Positions 2,631 through 47,233 of a stretch of 64,000 nucleotides of DNA are shown piece by piece. Numbering within the stretch: position 1 is the stretch's first letter; each line of letters opens with the position of its first letter. A program made the position numbers and the translations under genes. The notes beneath the pieces are model-generated. The model did no database searches. It was not told where the DNA came from and was given only the letters and a program-made list of their open reading frames with translations. Source of the stretch: an uncultured virus (IMG/VR IMGVR_UViG_3300027782_003691) (Duplodnaviria; Heunggongvirae; Uroviricota; Caudoviricetes); IMG/VR virus record IMGVR_UViG_3300027782_003691; one strand, written 5' to 3'.

Positions 2631-3289
2631 AAACTGTAAAACCCTTTATCGTAATTGCCATGTACAATCACATGGTATCTAACTTCATTGCTGTTATTAA
2701 TAACAATATGTTCTGTTCCAACATCTAACACTAATCCAGTGCCAGGCTCAAACGGTACTATACCTTTATTTTTAAAAACAAAATGACATCCCTCTGGATT
2801 ATTGATAGCAATATTTAATGGACTAAATGCTCTTTCAAATTTATTATCACTATGCGGCATAATATATCCACCTGGCGCAAGTCGCATAATACGTACACGA
2901 TCAAATTCTGTAAATGGTAAACTACTTAAAAATTTGTATAAGTTAGGTACACGCTCACACGCATCGGTCCAATGATATCCAGCGTCTGTTGCACTGGTAA
3001 ACCCATACTTAGTATAATGTTCTGTCTTGTGTTTGTCAATACCATGTAGCGTTAGACTTTGCCAACCTTCATGTCCATAGCCTTTTTTCTTGTCTTGTCC
3101 ACGATGATTGAAATATAAATCATCCACTGACTGGCACTCTGTTAATAATAGCGCAGTATCAAAGTCAAATTTGATAGGGTAATACGTACATTCTGGATCA
3201 TCATGTGATTCTTGAAAGTTAGTGTATGTTGGATTTGAGAAGTCTTTGTTTTGGTTGTAAAATGCGAGTAATTCTTCAGGGTAATTCAC
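2627..3289 (-). CDS. aspartyl/asparaginyl beta-hydroxylase-like 2OG-Fe(II) oxygenase
   Basis: RVRIMRLAPGGYIMPHSD ... HIVINNSNEVRYH (HxD...H...R). Confidence 0.85.
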   Translation of the reverse strand: MNYPEELLAFYNQNKDFSNPTYTNFQESHDDPECTYYPIKFDFDTALLLTECQSVDDLYFNHRGQDKKKGYGHEGWQSLTLHGIDKHKTEHYTKYGFTSATDAGYHWTDACERVPNLYKFLSSLPFTEFDRVRIMRLAPGGYIMPHSDNKFERAFSPLNIAINNPEGCHFVFKNKGIVPFEPGTGLVLDVGTEHIVINNSNEVRYHVIVHGNYDKGFYSL

Positions 3290-38111: not shown

Positions 38112-39056
38112 CTATTTTGACACTATCTTGGGATTATATTTGTTAAGAAAAATATCCCCGGGACACACACAACTAGGTCTAGGACAAGTCAAATACTCAT
38201 CAAGCAAATTAAAATTTGAAATAGTCCCTAATAGTCTAGCATTACAAATTCCTGCTCTAACTTCACCGTTGGCGTATACACATATACCTTCACTACCCGC
38301 AGCACACCGCCAGTTATGAAAATAATGTAAACCTTCTGCCATAATTGTATTGGGAACAGCACGATTAATATCGCCATTCGAATAAACTGCCTTAACGTCC
38401 CATGCTATATTTGAATCTAGTTTGGTGGGGTAGCTTTTAATAAAATCTAATTGCTCGGATGTATATGAATACATATCTCTGTTAAACGTGTCTTGATCCT
38501 GTATAACTTTTGGAATGATAAATGGTTTGAATCTAACATCAACGTCATTAACTATTTCCATTACCGTATCCCACATACCCGGATGGCACATAAGATTAAA
38601 CTGTATATCCACTCCATTGTCTTTTAAAAATTCGCATAGTTGATTGATTTTTAATTTTTTGGAGTCATAGTATTCTGGATGCAATGACAAAATTACTAGT
38701 TGTGGTTGTTTGGACAATGATTGCCACCAGCTGACGCTTCTAGCACCATTTGTTGTAACGGTAATAGTAGCGTAATCATGTAGGCGTTCAATTATGTCTG
38801 CGAATTTATTATGTAAGGTAGGTTCACCACCTGATATATTAACCACCAATCTCTTTTTAGTCTGTTGTTGTATAGCGATTAGCTTATCGAGAAACAAATC
38901 AATGTCACTATCACTCGGAAATAGAGGGCTATTTGCATATGCTCCAAGATTTAATGATGAGGGACAGTATGTACAATGCTGATTACAAAAATCAGTCAAT
39001 ATCCAATAGACAAATATCTCATTGTTTAAATTTTTAATCTCTATTAATTCTTTCAT
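38112..39056 (-). CDS. radical SAM protein with C-terminal Cys-rich domain (paralog of 4414/5367 pair)
   Basis: CNQHCTYC, SGGEP, C-terminal CPRPSCVC. Confidence 0.88.
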   Translation of the reverse strand: MKELIEIKNLNNEIFVYWILTDFCNQHCTYCPSSLNLGAYANSPLFPSDSDIDLFLDKLIAIQQQTKKRLVVNISGGEPTLHNKFADIIERLHDYATITVTTNGARSVSWWQSLSKQPQLVILSLHPEYYDSKKLKINQLCEFLKDNGVDIQFNLMCHPGMWDTVMEIVNDVDVRFKPFIIPKVIQDQDTFNRDMYSYTSEQLDFIKSYPTKLDSNIAWDVKAVYSNGDINRAVPNTIMAEGLHYFHNWRCAAGSEGICVYANGEVRAGICNARLLGTISNFNLLDEYLTCPRPSCVCPGDIFLNKYNPKIVSK

Positions 39057-40812: not shown

Positions 40813-40905
40813 TGGCGAGTAGCAGAGGAGTCGAACCCCATCCCCATTACAGAGAACCCAGTTTTCAAGGCTGGTCGCAGGACCAACCCCGCTGCATTAC
40901 TACTC
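40813..40905 (-). tRNA. tRNA-Ser(TGA), 8/4 cloverleaf
   Basis: 8-bp acceptor GAGTAGTA/TGCTACTC, 4-bp T stem GGGG/CCTC, CT-TGA-AA. Confidence 0.88.
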
Positions 40906-41089: not shown

Positions 41090-42565
41090 CTAAGTGTACT
41101 TCTTAACTGTAAGTATAGCACGGTCTCGGGCTACTTGTCTACCGCGACCATCTAATTTTAATTGATCTCGTGTTTTATGTTCAATATCGAAATCCGATTC
41201 TCCATTGTGCCACGCTGAGCCAATTAGCCAGCCACCACACCGAACAACTCCGGCCGAGTCTTTGAGTAATTTGAATGCTGCATCAAATGCCTGCTCAGAT
41301 GTCATAAATTCATTCTTCCATGCACTATTTTCGCCTGGCTTTCGATCAACAGTATAACCATATTTTTCTGGATCACGTTCCAGGGCACTCATTAATGTTG
41401 TTTCTTTTTCAATGTCATTATAAGTATAGATTCCAAGGGCACTAAACTGCCAGGTTCTAAATAAGTTTGGATTATTTTTACAAAACTCGGCTGTTTTAAA
41501 TGAATCATCTATTGTGTCGCCCGGCAGTCCTACAATAAAGCCTGCACTTAATTTAACTTGATTACTACCGCTAGTTAACATATTAAGTGCATGTAGAACC
41601 TTCTCAATGTTCATTCCTTTATTCATAACTTTTCTAGCATGGTTGTTCATGCTTTCTATTCCAACAAATCCACCTACTAGCCCCATTCGCAACAACTGCG
41701 GAATCATTTCGGGTTTGGTTACTAGTAACTCTGGTTTAAGATAACATTGAAATTCAAAGTTGGGTATCTTTGCTAATTCTATGGCTCGCTCAAGTCTATT
41801 TAACTTCTCCACACTATCATTGAATGTATCATCCATCAATGAATATCTGGTAGTACCAAACAATTCATAATTGCGACGAAGTTCGTTGCTTATGCTTTCA
41901 GGAGTTCTCATGTAAGATTCGTAATCTTTTGCTCCTTGAAACGGATGAGTACAGTACGCACATCTAAAAATACACCCCCTGCTGGCTTCCAATGGTATTG
42001 GTTGATGACTAAGAAAGTTATCTTCTGGTTTTAATACAGTTTCTATATCATCTGGATTTGCGATATGATGGAATTTATTACTATCCACCGTTTTTTTGCC
42101 ATTGCTGTCAATAAAATACTTTAACTGATGTCCTGTCTTGCCTTCTAATAACATTAGAAATCTAGGAAAACTGTCATCGCTAAATCCACCAATATGCCAA
42201 TCTGCTGCGTCATAAAGACCACGAGCACCTGGCATTCGTAATATACCATTACCACCTGCGACAATTTTTAATTTTGGATGTTTGGCACGAATTCTATTAA
42301 AAAAATCTTCGTTAATCCATTCAATGTCGGCATGTCCATTATGTGGACGATCTAGCCAAACTGTGCTGACGCCCAAAAATAATGTTTTATCTGTAATAAC
42401 GTTGCTGAGTACTAGTTCTAGTTCTGCTTCCGTCATTGCAGTAGCACAATCAATAACTAAGTTATTGTATCCGAATTTTTCAGCAGCGGTACGTAATCTA
42501 TATCCAGCAATATTTCTACCGGAAAGGTCGTTTCTACTGCCACATAAAATTATTCCATGATACAT
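41090..42565 (-). CDS. B12-binding-domain-like radical SAM protein (paralog of 35015-36550)
   Basis: EASRGCIFRCAYC, DDTFND, GIES, GLPGDT. Confidence 0.88.
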   Translation of the reverse strand: MYHGIILCGSRNDLSGRNIAGYRLRTAAEKFGYNNLVIDCATAMTEAELELVLSNVITDKTLFLGVSTVWLDRPHNGHADIEWINEDFFNRIRAKHPKLKIVAGGNGILRMPGARGLYDAADWHIGGFSDDSFPRFLMLLEGKTGHQLKYFIDSNGKKTVDSNKFHHIANPDDIETVLKPEDNFLSHQPIPLEASRGCIFRCAYCTHPFQGAKDYESYMRTPESISNELRRNYELFGTTRYSLMDDTFNDSVEKLNRLERAIELAKIPNFEFQCYLKPELLVTKPEMIPQLLRMGLVGGFVGIESMNNHARKVMNKGMNIEKVLHALNMLTSGSNQVKLSAGFIVGLPGDTIDDSFKTAEFCKNNPNLFRTWQFSALGIYTYNDIEKETTLMSALERDPEKYGYTVDRKPGENSAWKNEFMTSEQAFDAAFKLLKDSAGVVRCGGWLIGSAWHNGESDFDIEHKTRDQLKLDGRGRQVARDRAILTVKKYT

Positions 42566-43218: not shown

Positions 43219-43228
43219 TAATTCTTTA

Positions 43229-43337
43229 TTACCATATTGAAATATATTAAATCTCTTGCACCGTCAAACGCAACTTCGCCCAGTTGACGCTGGACCGCCT
43301 TCTTCTTGTTGGCGTTTAATACACTTCAATATGGTAA
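43229..43337 (-). ncRNA. conserved-stem hairpin element H2
   Basis: TTACCATATTGAAGTGTATTAAA/TTTAATATATTTCAATATGGTAA. Confidence 0.65.
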
Positions 43338-43384
43338 CAGTCCATCCAAGCAAGGGCGTGTGACCATTGCACTTGGACAGGGTT

Positions 43385-43457
43385 ACCATATTGAAATACA
43401 CTCCGCTCGTTTCCTGGTTTATCAAATTTATACCACCAGAATGTACTTCAATATGGT
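43385..43457 (-). ncRNA. conserved-stem hairpin element H3
   Basis: ACCATATTGAAGTACATTCTG/CGGAGTGTATTTCAATATGGT. Confidence 0.65.
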
Positions 43458-43668
43458 GTAGGCTACCGAATCCCTTCGGCCCCTACCGGAGTTGTCTACC
43501 CTGTCCGTCTGATTATTCTCTATGAGTATGGGCATGTTCAGCAACACCCTACGATTTTTTCAGGCTCCCGACAGAGGGACTCTAAGGTAGATCGTAAGCA
43601 CCCTTAACTTTATCGTGGAGTTAATTCACGCCCTGTTAATAACGGCTAGGGACGCCGGGATTCCTATA
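43454..43668 (-). ncRNA. unclassified structured RNA ending in ACCA (~215 nt)
   Basis: GC-rich, ORF-free, several nested stems, TAGG/CCTA closing stem then CACCA. Confidence 0.5.
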
Positions 43669-43703
43669 AGTGAATGCTATCTGCTATTATACTATAGCCA
43701 CCA

Positions 43704-43916
43704 TTGTCATTAGTTGTATTGTCTCGTTATGGACAACAATAACCCTATTGTCGTTTGCTTTTATCGCTGAACTCTTATACAAGGGCATTGGCCAATGCTG
43801 ATCTTGCTTTCGTTTCAGGCAACAGTTTAGATCGCGCTAGCTAGACGGAGGATCCATCGCCTGTGCATTTTCCAAGTGAACACTGGAATTTTCCAAAACA
43901 ATACAACTAATAACAA
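43704..43916 (-). ncRNA. unclassified structured RNA (~213 nt)
   Basis: ~23-bp closing stem TTGTTATTAGTTGTATTGTTTTG/CGAGACAATACAACTAATGACAA. Confidence 0.55.
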
Positions 43917-43917
43917 C

Positions 43918-44170
43918 TAAGTGCTTTCTCCCTGCGGCGGTAACTATAGCATAGAGAAGTTGACTAACTATGCCTTCCATCCGCTTCACCGACCAAGGAG
44001 AACTCTCGTGTGCAAACGCCGGTTAGGTTAGACCGCAGCTTTCGCTGGAGCAGATTCTTCATCTCCGTTACCAGAGGTAGACCCTTGCTCGAACCACCCG
44101 TAGCCATCACAGCTACTTCATCGTCTGGGCTCAGACTAGGCACTGATTAGGTTGCCGTGGACTTTTTGCT
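43918..44170 (-). ncRNA. unclassified structured RNA (~250 nt) with GNRA-capped hairpins
   Basis: CTCTG-GTAA-CGGAG, CAGC-GAAA-GCTG, GTAGC/GCTAC, GTCTG/CAGAC, GCATAG/CTATGC. Confidence 0.55.
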
Positions 44171-44171
44171 T

Positions 44172-44261
44172 ACGCAATATTGAAGTGTATTACACGATAT
44201 GACCTCTGCAATGCTATTGCTAATTCGGGACTAGTTCGTGTAATACACTTCAATATTGCGT
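44172..44261 (-). ncRNA. conserved-stem hairpin element H4
   Basis: Perfect 26-bp inverted repeat ACGCAATATTGAAGTGTATTACACGA. Confidence 0.7.
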
Positions 44262-44265
44262 CTGT

Positions 44266-44278
44266 TTTTTAAAGAACG
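44266..44278 (-). promoter_or_regulatory. boxA-like antitermination site
   Basis: CGTTCTTTAAAAA just downstream of a promoter; compare rrn boxA TGCTCTTTAACA. Confidence 0.55.
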
Positions 44279-44304
44279 TTTACTGCATTTCTTACTATAC
44301 AAAC

Positions 44305-44333
44305 ATTATAGCTGTAGTTGAATTAACTGTCAA
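44305..44333 (-). promoter_or_regulatory. sigma70-type promoter
   Basis: TTGACA-17-TATAAT. Confidence 0.8.
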
Positions 44334-44356
44334 CTACTGTGCTAAAATACAACAAT

Positions 44357-44434
44357 TGGAGGTGAGGGTCGGAGTCGAACCGACGGTTTTCCGGATTTGC
44401 AATCCAGTGCAATGGACCACTCTGCCACCTCACC
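44357..44434 (-). tRNA. tRNA-Cys(GCA)
   Basis: TT-GCA-AA, U73, CCA. Confidence 0.93.
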
Positions 44435-44439
44435 TTATA

Positions 44440-44557
44440 TTATACCATTTTACACATTCCCGTTATCGCCAGGAACTTATCATCCGGTATTCCGCCCACA
44501 TTAATAGTAGCATGTTTAAAGTGCGCTACAGGCTCGCGTTACCCATCACACTCACTA
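44440..44557 (-). ncRNA. possible structured RNA directly after the attenuator terminator
   Basis: GC-richer spacer with GTAGC/GCTAC and TTCCTG/CGGGAA stems. Confidence 0.35.
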
Positions 44558-44558
44558 C

Positions 44559-44597
44559 AAAAACAAAAAACCCTGGAGTATTTCTAGTCCAGGGTCC
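44559..44597 (-). terminator. intrinsic terminator (putative attenuator)
   Basis: ACCCTGGA-loop-TCCAGGGT then TTTTTGTTTTT. Confidence 0.85.
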
Positions 44598-44650
44598 TTA
44601 AAGTTTACGATGTTAGCTATTGCTTAACCATCACATCCTTCTCGAACCCC
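44591..44650 (-). promoter_or_regulatory. putative antiterminator hairpin overlapping the terminator 5' arm
   Basis: GGGGUUC/GGACCCU, GAAG/CUUU, GAUGU/ACAUC, UGGUUA/UAGCUA nested pairings. Confidence 0.65.
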
Positions 44651-44782
44651 ACTATACTCCTTGCCTGTTTCAATCATATTAAATACTGAATCATTTCCTG
44701 AGCGTAAGGCCACCACTGGACTCCAGCATAATGCTAGTGTCTGGGGCAACTGATACGATATGGAATGGCTTGTGTTTTTCAT
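44624..44782 (-). CDS. putative attenuator leader peptide (52 aa, all 20 amino acids)
   Basis: MKNTSHSISYQLPQTLALCWSPVVALRSGNDSVFNMIETGKEYSGVREGCDG; ATG 8 nt after the -10 box. Confidence 0.65.
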   Translation of the reverse strand: MKNTSHSISYQLPQTLALCWSPVVALRSGNDSVFNMIETGKEYSGVREGCDG

Positions 44783-44790
44783 GTTAAGTT

Positions 44791-44819
44791 ATTTTAATGC
44801 TAAGTGATTTAATTGTCAA
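44791..44819 (-). promoter_or_regulatory. sigma70-type promoter for leaderless leader-peptide mRNA
   Basis: TTGACA-17-TAAAAT. Confidence 0.75.
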
Positions 44820-44924
44820 CTTCTTTTTAGGAAGTTTGTAAAGTTATTTAGTCAATGTATAAATTATACGCAAATAACCGTATAAAAGCAAGCATTTTGA
44901 TAAAAATAGTTGCGTTATTACAAC

Positions 44925-44947: not shown

Positions 44948-46003
44948 TTAAAACGCATATGGGTTATAAGTTTTTGCCTTAATGCGAGTTAGCATCAACC
45001 GAATGCCGTTGTTCTCAAAAACAAATCTGGCACCGTTGTTATCCACCTTGACTAAATCTTGTGGGCTAAAGCGATTGCGTGTCCATGTGCTATCACCATC
45101 CTCGTCCTTCTCCCCATCATACTCAATCTGAACAGTATTGGCAAGTGGGTTACCTTCAAAAACTTCAGGATAAGTTGTAACATCAAGTACTTTACCTTCA
45201 ACAATCAATGAAATATCATACCGGCATCCTGAATCAAATTCAGGCTTGGTGTTTAGAATTTTCATTGCGTCCTGCGGAGCTTCGTTGTAGCGATTCATTT
45301 CTTCAACAAGTGCTTTAAGCATGTCAAAGTTAAACTCAGCGAACAAGTTAGTCAATGAACAAATACGTTCAATGTGTTCCTTGTGTTTAAGATTATCTTC
45401 GCAGTATTCAACGATAAATTCTTGTGACAACCCAGTAAAGTCAATCATGTAAAAAATACGACCAGGACGATTACGCATATGTTGATCAACACGCCACTTG
45501 TCATTACAAGTTAGAATAAACAATTTCTTACCTGAGTACACTCCATCCAGTAGGGTAAGAATAGCTTCTTGCTCGTCTTTGTCATAGACCTTTTCAAACT
45601 CGTCAAACAAGATAACACAAGGTTGACTAATAGTTTGTAATAGTGTGTTAAACTTCTCGCCTGTAAACGCATCGTTAATAACAATGGTTGGTACCTCTTG
45701 CTTAGCCAGCTCAATGCTGATCTTTTTGCTTAGTAATGTCTTCCCCGACCCTTTCTCTCCTGTCAGCATTACGCCAGTAGAACTAGGACGTTCCCAGAAT
45801 GTGTTGATAATACGATCTGTATTCTTAAGTGTATCACCGTAAATCTTACCTGATACCGTAAAGCTATCAATGTGTTCAAGGTACAAGTTTTCAAACATGT
45901 CAATCTTGATTACATAGTTGCCAGCTGGCAATGTAGAATGAATATCCATTGCTTCTTCTGAAGCGACTTTGTATGTATTACCTGATTTTAAAAAGTGTGC
46001 CAT
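44948..46003 (-). CDS. AAA family ATPase
   Basis: GEKGSGKT, ILFDEFEK, LTCN, RPGR. Confidence 0.9.
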   Translation of the reverse strand: MAHFLKSGNTYKVASEEAMDIHSTLPAGNYVIKIDMFENLYLEHIDSFTVSGKIYGDTLKNTDRIINTFWERPSSTGVMLTGEKGSGKTLLSKKISIELAKQEVPTIVINDAFTGEKFNTLLQTISQPCVILFDEFEKVYDKDEQEAILTLLDGVYSGKKLFILTCNDKWRVDQHMRNRPGRIFYMIDFTGLSQEFIVEYCEDNLKHKEHIERICSLTNLFAEFNFDMLKALVEEMNRYNEAPQDAMKILNTKPEFDSGCRYDISLIVEGKVLDVTTYPEVFEGNPLANTVQIEYDGEKDEDGDSTWTRNRFSPQDLVKVDNNGARFVFENNGIRLMLTRIKAKTYNPYAF

Positions 46004-46097: not shown

Positions 46098-46490
46098 GCT
46101 ATTTTCTGTTACTAGGTATAACTACCCTACGCCAGTGATTAAACTGCGAAAGTTTCGGCTTTCACTGAACCACGAGCAGAGAAACGAATTCCTTTGCCAG
46201 CTGATACAGTTACTTCGCCTTTAGATGCGTTTGCGTCTAGGTTTTTTGCTTGATTTGCGGTCATCGCCTACCGTGTAGATCTCCTTGATACTAATCACCC
46301 CGTCGAATCTAAGTCGGGCCCATTAGGAAGAACTCTCTTGTCGTTCATAACATACACCTAGCTGTTTATGTATATTACTAATTCCACTAGCTTACAGATC
46401 ACTAGGGAGAGTTCTTTCTGGTGGACCCGGGGAGGCTCTGCCCCTCCCGTCCGAAGCACCTTTCTCTTAAAGCATTAAACTACAATTCTA
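46098..46490 (-). ncRNA. ssrA: circularly permuted two-piece tmRNA (acceptor piece ~46490-46419, intervening segment, coding piece 46321-~46098)
   Basis: GGGCCCG...GATTCGAC 5' end; upstream GGAC-T arm-CGGGTCC-ACCA; G3-U70; tag frame 46234-46139 ANASKGEVTVSAGKGIRFSARGSVKAETFAV*. Confidence 0.9.
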
Positions 46491-47233
46491 TTTTGTGGCA
46501 TACTCTTCCTTAGTCTACCACTACTAAACCCATTATTTAAGTATTCCTGCTTTTTACTTAAATCTATAAAATGTTCTTTGATACCATTATTTACCCAACA
46601 TTCCTTGGCAAGGTGTCCTTTTTTACCTCTAACCCAACCTTCTGGAATAATATCACTTATTCTAATACGTTTCACTTCCTTTGTCAATATATTAGATATC
46701 CATATTCTCCCAAACTGCGAATTTTTTTCACCTTGACTATGTCCTATTTTTAAAAATGTAGTTTTTCGTTTAGCTTTTGCTTCTGGCGTAGTTGCTTTTT
46801 GTCCTATCGTTTTCATTCTATCAGGAGCCCTTGACCATTCTACTGTTTTTTGAAACTCAGGATCTTTAAATGGATTATTAGATCTACTAGCACTTTTCTT
46901 TCCACCTAATCTAGATTTTTCAAGATGTTCATCACTACCATTCCAGTGATCCCATCCTCCGAGGCCACCTTTGTGCATATTGTAAGTATCGTGTCTTTTC
47001 ACAAAATCTTCTGTAACGATTTCTGCTTCTTTGACGGCCATTTCTTCCAATGAAGAGCAATAGTATAAGACTTCTTTATTAAAGTTTTCTATGCCATATT
47101 TTTGTATGGCAGACATTATCTGTTTGCCGGATCCATAATATCCGTTTATAGATGGATGTAGTGATGATTTATGTTTTCCGACATAAATCTTACCATTCGT
47201 TAAATTAGTGATTTGGTAGATATAATAATACAT
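46475..47233 (-). mobile_element. free-standing GIY-YIG (Seg-like) homing endonuclease gene
   Basis: YIYQITN..NGKIYVGKH...YYGSG...E...YN; C-terminal NUMOD-like repeats (GEKNSQFG, W.NNG, G...GR). Confidence 0.88.

Follow-up and report, generated by a model that had tools for sequence, protein, structure and literature searches.

A candidate translation-coupled attenuator built on a conserved small gene ahead of tRNA-Cys in an uncultured freshwater phage

The stretch of DNA analyzed here (the window) comprises 64,000 nucleotides of an uncultured freshwater phage (Caudoviricetes; IMG/VR record IMGVR_UViG_3300027782_003691). It carries on its minus strand a compact unit of ~260 nt in which a 52-codon open reading frame (ORF), MKNTSHSISYQLPQTLALCWSPVVALRSGNDSVFNMIETGKEYSGVREGCDG (44624-44782), runs into two overlapping hairpins shortly before a tRNA-Cys gene, and the question raised by this locus is what such an arrangement does in a phage. 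A previous sequence-only reading took the unit for an attenuator in which a leader peptide containing all 20 amino acids gates a whole array of phage tRNA and non-coding RNA genes. We confirmed that the sequence features described in that reading are all present where it placed them, and found in addition a second promoter upstream of the first and an extended -10 motif before tRNA-Cys, neither of which it had included. Our own best reading is narrower: the unit would be a ribosome-coupled attenuator that controls a single cistron behind it and has as its leader a small protein gene under selection in its own right, an interpretation to which we give slightly less than even confidence. All window features were read on the minus strand, and promoters were scored as matches out of 12 to the consensus.

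The first step towards an answer is whether the ORF is a gene. We found the module in 12 distinct DNA sequences, each with tandem promoters, an ATG 8-9 nt past the -10 box, an ORF of 52-55 codons and a hairpin that shares ACCC with a terminator. These include a deeper lineage (L203-L210), in which L203 repeats the full layout of upstream promoter P1 (11/12), downstream promoter P2 (12/12), ATG, ORF, hairpin and terminator. At the protein level, 18 full-length homologous peptides from related freshwater phage contigs have 52-55 residues, so that the ORF length proposed as a check is indeed conserved. One further, chimeric form of 119 residues (P0016) has the first 37 residues of the peptide followed by unrelated sequence, and points to an ORF copy that has been rearranged or interrupted.

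Although up to 45 differences separate them, the 12 DNA sequences all keep the ATG, the frame and the stop codon. The only indel inside the ORF among the DNA homologues is 3 nt long, and the flanks have indels of 1-3 nt. Variable columns number 11, 15 and 20 at codon positions 1, 2 and 3, and the ratio of nonsynonymous to synonymous change (dN/dS) ranges from 0.18 to 0.83, below 1 in all 15 pairs. When the observed differences were shifted by permutation to random sites of the same base, synonymous changes proved to be in excess between the window and L203 (P=0.001) and, at P<=0.05, in seven out of ten pairs, with values of 0.096, 0.20 and 0.42 in the other three. Two peptide blocks, ALCWSPVA.LRS and NMIEAGKDYSRV.EG.D, flank a variable linker whose length differs by whole codons, and 17 columns are invariant across 16 of the 18 peptides. 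Length changes of 1-3 codons between the blocks keep the frame in 18/18 peptides, a count to be read with the fact that frame-shifted forms are invisible to a protein search. This pattern of change leads us to regard the ORF as translated and its peptide as selected. The sequence-only reading had predicted poor peptide conservation, and the two conserved blocks and the synonymous excess go against that prediction. Since the peptide is under purifying selection, it probably does something itself, whether in trans or within the ribosome. Its sequence gave nothing meaningful in Pfam-A and no match in the ESM Atlas, while the best PHROGs match (phrog_28091, unknown function, E=0.0014) was obtained for 2 of 16 members and offers no usable lead. 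The AlphaFold2 model of the peptide is of low confidence, with a predicted local distance difference test score (pLDDT) of 55 and a predicted template modelling score (pTM) of 0.15.

The same comparisons make it very improbable that the unit is an untranslated structured RNA with a fortuitous ORF. Such an RNA would account for the folding of the 230-nt transcript, which is better than that of shuffled sequences (z=-2.99, with 2 of 200 shuffles as good), for the absence of a Shine-Dalgarno sequence before the ORF, and for several synonymous changes that also fit predicted stems or loops; the low-confidence AlphaFold2 model agrees with it as well. However, it would not explain an ORF intact in 12/12 sequences or the frame-keeping length changes of the peptides, and the helices predicted in the 5' two thirds of the ORF have almost no covariation. 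In addition, Rfam 15 gave no match at 44555-44830 (E<=1 in a search of 15.5 kb, with only chance-level matches at E<=10 over 1.7 kb), and the ATGAAAAA that directly follows the -10 box is a good leaderless start.

How the ORF would be transcribed and started can be read from its promoters. An intrinsic terminator, AAGCCC-TTCG-GGGCTT with a T tract (44943-44928), lies at the end of the upstream AAA-ATPase gene (44948-46003) and, as had been claimed, isolates the module from transcription of that gene. The sigma70 promoter of the sequence-only reading, our P2 (TTGACA-17-TAAAAT, 44791-44819; -35 at 44819-44814 and -10 at 44796-44791), scores 11/12, and the ATG at 44782 stands 8 nt past its -10 box, again as described. 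In relatives, the -10 box of P2 is TACAAT or TATAAT, and the distance to the ATG is 8-9 nt in all lineages (9 nt in L203). The second promoter, P1 (TTGCTT-17-TATAAT, 44863-44891), was read from the sequence and is kept in the alignment; its -35 box matches the consensus at 3/6 positions in the window and is TTGATT or TTGACT in relatives, and its score is 10/12 in L009. The mRNA from P2 is predicted to be leaderless or to have a leader of 0-3 nt, while transcripts from P1 would have a leader of ~75 nt before the ATG. When promoters of at least 9/12 were considered, this was the sole window ORF of at least 45 residues with an 11/12 promoter at such a spacing from its ATG. We also considered leaderless genes as a general habit of this phage, an idea without support, as the combination of strong promoter and right spacing occurs at the 52-codon ORF only; a Shine-Dalgarno-like motif precedes 27 of the 67 long ORFs of the window.

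The 3' end of the ORF lies within the first of the two hairpins. Hairpin A, the candidate antiterminator (44585-44654, from folding and covariation), has a basal helix of GGGGTTC (44650-44644, codons 45-47) with GGACCCT (44597-44591), extended by TAGT/ACTA, and its inner stems, found as written in the sequence-only reading, surround the TAA stop (44626-44624). The 5' half of A consists of codons 45-52 together with this stop, whose place in A is the same in all 12 DNA sequences. In the 12-row alignment, 92.6% of the cells in A are paired, whereas sliding the partner by 1-3 columns leaves 36-47%, and three pairs are altered on both sides. RNAalifold also predicted this hairpin, with its inner register slightly altered and with 4 more base pairs that reach into the terminator loop; its consensus minimum-energy fold does not contain the terminator. 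That terminator, T (44559-44595, from pairing and covariation), has an 8-bp G+C-rich stem of ACCCTGGA (44595-44588) and TCCAGGGT (44577-44570) around a 10-nt loop, followed by a T tract, in agreement with the earlier description. A consensus scan called T in L009 and L003 and missed it in the window owing to the 10-nt loop. Paired cells make up 97.6% of T, and two of its pairs are compensatory, with G-C changed to A-U in five rows and U-A to G-C in L203; together with the double-sided changes in A, these are the covariation that had been proposed as a check of both hairpins. Covariation was assessed on 11 distinct rows, with peptides P0012-P0018 represented by protein sequence only.

The two hairpins compete for the same nucleotides. 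The 5' arm of T overlaps the 3' arm of A, with ACCC(U) common to both, which makes the folds mutually exclusive. Folds computed with the basal helix of A enforced and with the core of T enforced differ in energy by -3.2 to +2.6 kcal/mol in all nine sequences tested. The competition is limited to the 7-bp basal helix of A, and its inner stems can co-exist with T. As far as can be told from sequence, conserved, balanced and mutually exclusive folds beneath the last codons of an ORF are the anatomy of a ribosome-dependent attenuator.

What lies beyond T determines whether such an attenuator would have anything to control. The segment immediately downstream has no consensus promoter, as attenuation requires: our scan of the window, L009, L003 and L203 found none in the interval from T to the following gene. 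In 11 of the 12 distinct sequences, the first gene past T is tRNA-Cys (GCA; 44357-44434 in the window), separated from it by a non-coding spacer of 124 nt (44435-44558) that would be transcribed by read-through only. This spacer is more conserved (~95%) than the ORF (81-85%) across four lineages, and the sequence at 44435-44562 folds no better than shuffles (z=-1.2). L203 differs: a 55-codon ORF (2740-2907, plus strand) with a Shine-Dalgarno sequence begins ~15 nt past the T tract and lacks a promoter. A tblastn search of the window for this ORF gave no relative (best E=3.3), the L204 variant keeps its frame through a 3-nt indel, and the next promoter follows only after it. The promoter-less next gene, the Shine-Dalgarno-led ORF of L203 and the conserved spacer argue, from their sequences, that read-through is real and matters.

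RNA-library data bear on the same point. Six lake metatranscriptome runs match part of the stretch, and we compared the contigs of four of them, restricting interpretation to the parts covered. In run X5, a contig of 523 nt (44303-44825) bridges both T and tRNA-Cys, and its beginning, upstream of the expected start site of P2, fits transcription from P1. A contig of run X17 (44493-44759) likewise bridges T, and one of run X18 (44553-44764) ends just beyond the T tract. Run X16 has 151-nt pieces at 44624-44774 and 44434-44584, the latter starting inside T and ending at the first base of the tRNA. The spacer is covered by RNA-library contigs, and T is bridged in two of the four runs. Terminated and read-through RNA occurring together would fit this picture.

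Taken with the layout, these features suggest the following mechanism. The element would be a self-contained early unit in which two tandem host-type promoters produce an RNA of ~220 nt that begins at or within ~3 nt of the AUG and encodes the conserved peptide of 52-55 residues. A ribosome keeping pace with the polymerase to the end of the ORF would hold the 5' arm of A open, so that T forms and the transcript ends. With the ribosome absent or lagging, A would persist and the polymerase would continue into the promoter-less stretch, to reach the spacer and tRNA-Cys in the window lineage or the small Shine-Dalgarno-led gene in the L203 lineage. We infer the leaderless start, the control of the choice between A and T by the ribosome, and any physiological signal that the unit would respond to. 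We would place just short of one half the chance that a real small gene serves here as the leader of a translation-coupled attenuator, with read-through as the translation-free default.

Several observations weigh against this interpretation. We found no third (pause or anti-antiterminator) hairpin, as the 5' arm of A has no competing helix in the consensus fold, and the ORF contains no run or enrichment of a regulatory codon beyond pairs such as VV, its composition being even. With an unpaired 4-nt toehold (UGGA) and a slight energetic advantage in the window (-1.9 kcal/mol), T could form without a ribosome. The covariation comes from only 11 distinct rows, in which changes are mostly one-sided. 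The RNA-library contigs may include DNA and show neither transcript ends, strand nor expression rank. An extended -10 motif, TGGTATAAT (44447-44439; variant TGGTATAGT), lies just before tRNA-Cys, with a predicted start site that coincides with the first bases of the tRNA; it could free tRNA-Cys from read-through in the window, L011, L004 and L003, and is absent in L009 and L007. Finally, an ordinary small gene would be just as likely to encode a conserved peptide.

This last point leads to the explanation that we regard as the most serious rival, possible though on balance unlikely, namely that the locus is an ordinary early gene for a small protein, or else a small RNA with a dual function. 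It would produce an abundant short mRNA, with A as a stabilising or processing structure, T leaky, and read-through without regulatory meaning. The peptide blocks and synonymous excess, the strong tandem promoters and a terminator of its own are all what such a gene would have. The slight preference for T in the window with the inner stems of A co-existing, the extended -10 motif before tRNA-Cys in four lineages, and the one RNA contig that ends just past T are also in line with it. On the other hand, it leaves unexplained why the overlap and energetic balance of A and T are kept in 9/9 tested sequences through changes that preserve the basal helix, why L203 has a Shine-Dalgarno-led coding gene without a promoter right past T, and why a spacer transcribable only by read-through is more conserved than the ORF. 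A peptide without a confident fold or a known family is likewise not what it would favour.

If an attenuator is present, the next question is how far its control extends. In the window, a 12/12 consensus promoter (44305-44333) directly follows tRNA-Cys and begins the next, independent unit, with the same arrangement in L009 and L003; control would therefore reach one cistron and not the array. The sequence-only reading had itself listed this promoter among internal ones ending at 44305, 38083, 37412 and 34784, and we found all four to be perfect matches (12/12) that feed the remaining array. Its claim that the element gates the array is thus contradicted by the promoter past tRNA-Cys and at least three more downstream, and in one lineage T is followed by a protein gene. 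The array itself had been described as tRNA-Cys followed by ~10 kb of tRNAs and non-coding RNAs on the same strand; tRNA-Cys is there, at 44434-44357, whereas the ~10 kb also includes protein genes, for example at 41090-42565 and 38112-39056.

Control of a single tRNA gene brings up a loop specific to cysteine, in which the invariant UGC at codon 19 would report charged tRNA-Cys and a stall there would favour read-through into the phage tRNA-Cys. We consider this quite improbable. Its attractions are that Cys19 (TGC) is invariant in 18/18 peptides, that tRNA-Cys(GCA) lies behind the element on the same strand in 12/12 DNA sequences, and that mycobacteria are reported to have leaderless short ORFs that sense cysteine (10.1101/834739). 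The ORF, however, contains a single Cys codon and no run, and Cys19 sits inside the invariant LCWSPV block, where it looks like a protein constraint. Moreover, a protein gene and a promoter come between T and tRNA-Cys in L203, and the shared gene order may merely be inherited.

The most distinctive claim of the sequence-only reading was that the ORF, with all 20 amino acids and many different codons, lets a stall of any kind, whether from starvation or from cleavage by an anticodon nuclease, spare the antiterminator and turn on replacement phage tRNAs. The counts underlying this claim hold: the ORF at 44782-44624 has 52 codons, 39 of them distinct sense codons, and contains 20/20 residues by codon 38. 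Whether these counts are unusual depends on the comparison. Among the 55 window ORFs of at least 150 residues, none of 12,598 windows of 52 codons reaches 39 distinct codons (mean 30.8, sd 2.7), and random sequence with the base composition of the ORF yields 34.0 +/- 2.4 (P=0.03). With the peptide fixed and synonymous codons drawn at phage usage, 35.4 +/- 2.2 are expected (P=0.08), so the excess results from an even amino-acid composition and not from codon choice. The proposed excess in codon diversity is clear against genomic windows, weaker against random sequence, and fails once the peptide is given; relatives have 34-40 distinct codons, and diversity is not maintained. The codon use of the ORF had also been called unlike that around it, and its codon adaptation index of 0.68, in comparison with 0.73 +/- 0.06 for long ORFs, is not clearly atypical. 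All 20 residues are present in 6.1% of 52-residue and 0.87% of 38-residue windows of the long ORFs, and in 5 of 202 small window ORFs; the composition alone is uncommon, not extraordinary.

Retention of the full set among relatives is a separate matter. The 20 residues all occur before codon 44, upstream of hairpin A, and 17 of the 18 peptides contain all of them, P0018 lacking Gln. His is found at four or five positions and Phe at three, and neither is lost from any peptide. We simulated retention on a maximum-likelihood tree from an ancestor with all 20 residues, using parsimony counts for each column, and obtained P=0.0007-0.009 for at least 17 of 18 tips staying complete. Most of this signal comes from Phe (P=0.03 that no tip lacks it), which lies in the indel-rich linker, where ambiguous alignment may scatter one residue over several columns. 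Retention of His gave P=0.22 with a column-profile null and 0.09 with a general null, and without Phe the retention of all residues gave P=0.04 with the general substitution null or 0.13 with the column-profile null. A column-shuffle test of the same retention (P=0.0035) was set aside in favour of the tree-based simulation because it ignores relatedness. Judged from these sequences, retention beyond phylogenetic inertia is only marginal.

We therefore regard the sensor proposed by the sequence-only reading as improbable. It can draw on 17 complete peptides of 18 down to roughly 45-55% identity, on a His and a Phe that shift position between lineages without ever being lost, on the phylogeny-aware simulation, and on the placement of 20/20 residues upstream of A; in a kinetic race, one long stall would presumably suffice. 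But the simulation signal is mainly that of Phe in an ambiguous linker, codon diversity is as expected from the peptide and falls to 34 in relatives, the conserved peptide runs contrary to the prediction of the model itself, and one homologue does without Gln. Control would also be limited to tRNA-Cys or one small gene, as the other tRNAs lie behind 12/12 promoters of their own, and tRNA-Met and the transfer-messenger RNA (tmRNA) gene are located upstream of the element. The wider proposal is that of a general translation-health sensor, a leader-peptide attenuator tuned to any codon and not to a single amino acid. As every amino acid is sampled before codon 44 and one long stall would let the polymerase outrun the ribosome, the loss of any one host tRNA, whether depleted or cleaved, would keep the antiterminator folded. 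Transcription from the two strong early promoters would then read through more often into phage RNA genes, as a measure against tRNA-targeting defences; we hold this to be improbable.

The nearest record, G001, is a 59.7-kb viral contig identical to the window over the element. With the neighbouring AAA-ATPase as bait (its closest phage match has 55.6% identity), we retrieved 80 viral loci, and the element is present in seven of them, all with an ATPase identity of at least 87%. The 69 distant loci (<=63% identity) showed no homologue and no tRNA-Cys in the DNA covered, and are uninformative either way. Further members came from pattern, peptide-profile and metagenome scans. An exact-pattern scan of viral contigs produced 110 matching stretches, mostly by chance, and only close relatives were confirmed by blastn, while the metagenome scan yielded no additional deep lineage with DNA. 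A DNA search of a phage collection of 50,697 records found the element in none of them, matching only a tRNA-like stretch in seven Cellulophaga phage records, and no cultured relative with the element was identified. The upstream neighbour differs among the sequences: insertions of 0.7-2.2 kb separate the element from the ATPase gene in relatives, and L203 has another upstream gene.

The surrounding region holds further features of its own. It includes 25 tRNA genes and a tmRNA gene in the window, of which tRNA-Met and the tmRNA, a permuted (two-piece) form, lie upstream of the element; ARAGORN predicted no tRNA-Phe among the 25 tRNA genes. The permuted tmRNA gene (46193-46484, minus strand) matches Rfam RF04321 with 91 bits against a threshold of 47, and ARAGORN assigned to the tmRNA of L009 an unusually long tag of 31 residues, ANASKGEVTVSAGKGIRFSARSSVKAETFAV, which also occurs in the window ORF at 46139-46264. 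Between tRNA-Met and the tmRNA is a GIY-YIG-like ORF of 252 residues (46475-47233, minus strand); together with the 0.7-2.2 kb insertions in L004, L007/L008, L009 and L011, this suggests that mobile endonuclease genes are moving in the region. A weak tRNA-Sec-like match (40818-40901, minus strand; 30.5 bits, below threshold) falls in a gap of the tRNA array. Downstream of tRNA-Cys, ~1.1 kb on the minus strand (43219-44304) behind the 12/12 promoter at 44333-44305 is devoid of long ORFs. It contains three long hairpins formed from one arm motif of ~20 nt (44172-44261, 43385-43457 and 43229-43337), and another two arms (43440-43463 and 44168-44191) could pair to enclose a core of ~700 nt. Rfam gave no match to 43219-44304, RNA-library contigs cover 43972-44154 and 43500-43650, and this segment may be a large processed non-coding RNA.

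Nearly all known cases of leader-peptide attenuation come from amino-acid operons of bacteria, whose leaders contain runs of one codon. If our best reading is true, the ~260-nt unit would be a conserved phage attenuator that is leaderless, lacks both a codon run and a third hairpin and precedes a phage tRNA gene, and the mechanism would be extended to viral control of translation components. If the peptide also acts in trans, this would be a dual-function attenuator in a virus, and if the composition of all 20 residues is selected, it would represent a new sensing logic. If neither is the case, the ORF would still define an unannotated, strongly expressed early family of small proteins in abundant freshwater phages. 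A limited full-text literature search surfaced no report of a leader-ORF attenuator before phage tRNA genes, which is not proof of absence.

In the attenuators of amino-acid operons (trpL, hisL, pheL, thrL and leuL), the position of the ribosome on the leader ORF picks the fold of the RNA. The phage unit resembles them in its short 5' ORF, its terminator before the next gene and its alternative hairpin that excludes the terminator, with the position of the ribosome inferred to decide the fold here as well. In contrast to these leaders, it has no run of codons for a single amino acid, and it has two competing structures instead of three, so that the untranslated RNA would give read-through and not termination. 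The ORF of 52-55 codons is also longer than theirs (14-30), is apparently leaderless and encodes a conserved peptide, and a phage tRNA or small phage gene lies downstream in place of a biosynthetic operon. TnaC is a regulatory nascent peptide that senses tryptophan and blocks access of Rho. The likeness to TnaC lies in a conserved peptide and an ORF that ends inside the regulatory RNA region, whereas no arrest motif, ligand or Rho site was identified for the 52-codon ORF.

Among leaderless short ORFs, a parallel is found in mycobacteria, where polycysteine ORFs are reported to hold stalled ribosomes that unmask a ribosome-binding site and thereby exert translational control (10.1101/834739). 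Common to both is a leaderless short first cistron on which the ribosome would act as a sensor for the genes that follow; the mycobacterial ORFs have Cys runs, while in the phage an intrinsic terminator competes and a single Cys codon is invariant. Arrays of phage tRNAs have been discussed as counter-defence against tRNA-cleaving systems (PMC10264068, PMC11555353, PMC11464382), and the element likewise lies inside a phage region of 25 tRNA genes and a tmRNA, although those papers reportedly concern the action of the tRNAs and not the control of their transcription by a leader ORF. Finally, in Sinorhizobium meliloti both the released attenuator small RNA rnTrpL and the peptide peTrpL of trpL are reported to function in trans (PMC6614838, PMC7298713). 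The trpL leader of that species, with 14 residues and consecutive Trp codons, differs from the 52-codon ORF of the phage, yet it provides a precedent by which a conserved peptide such as the one found here could be reconciled with an attenuator.

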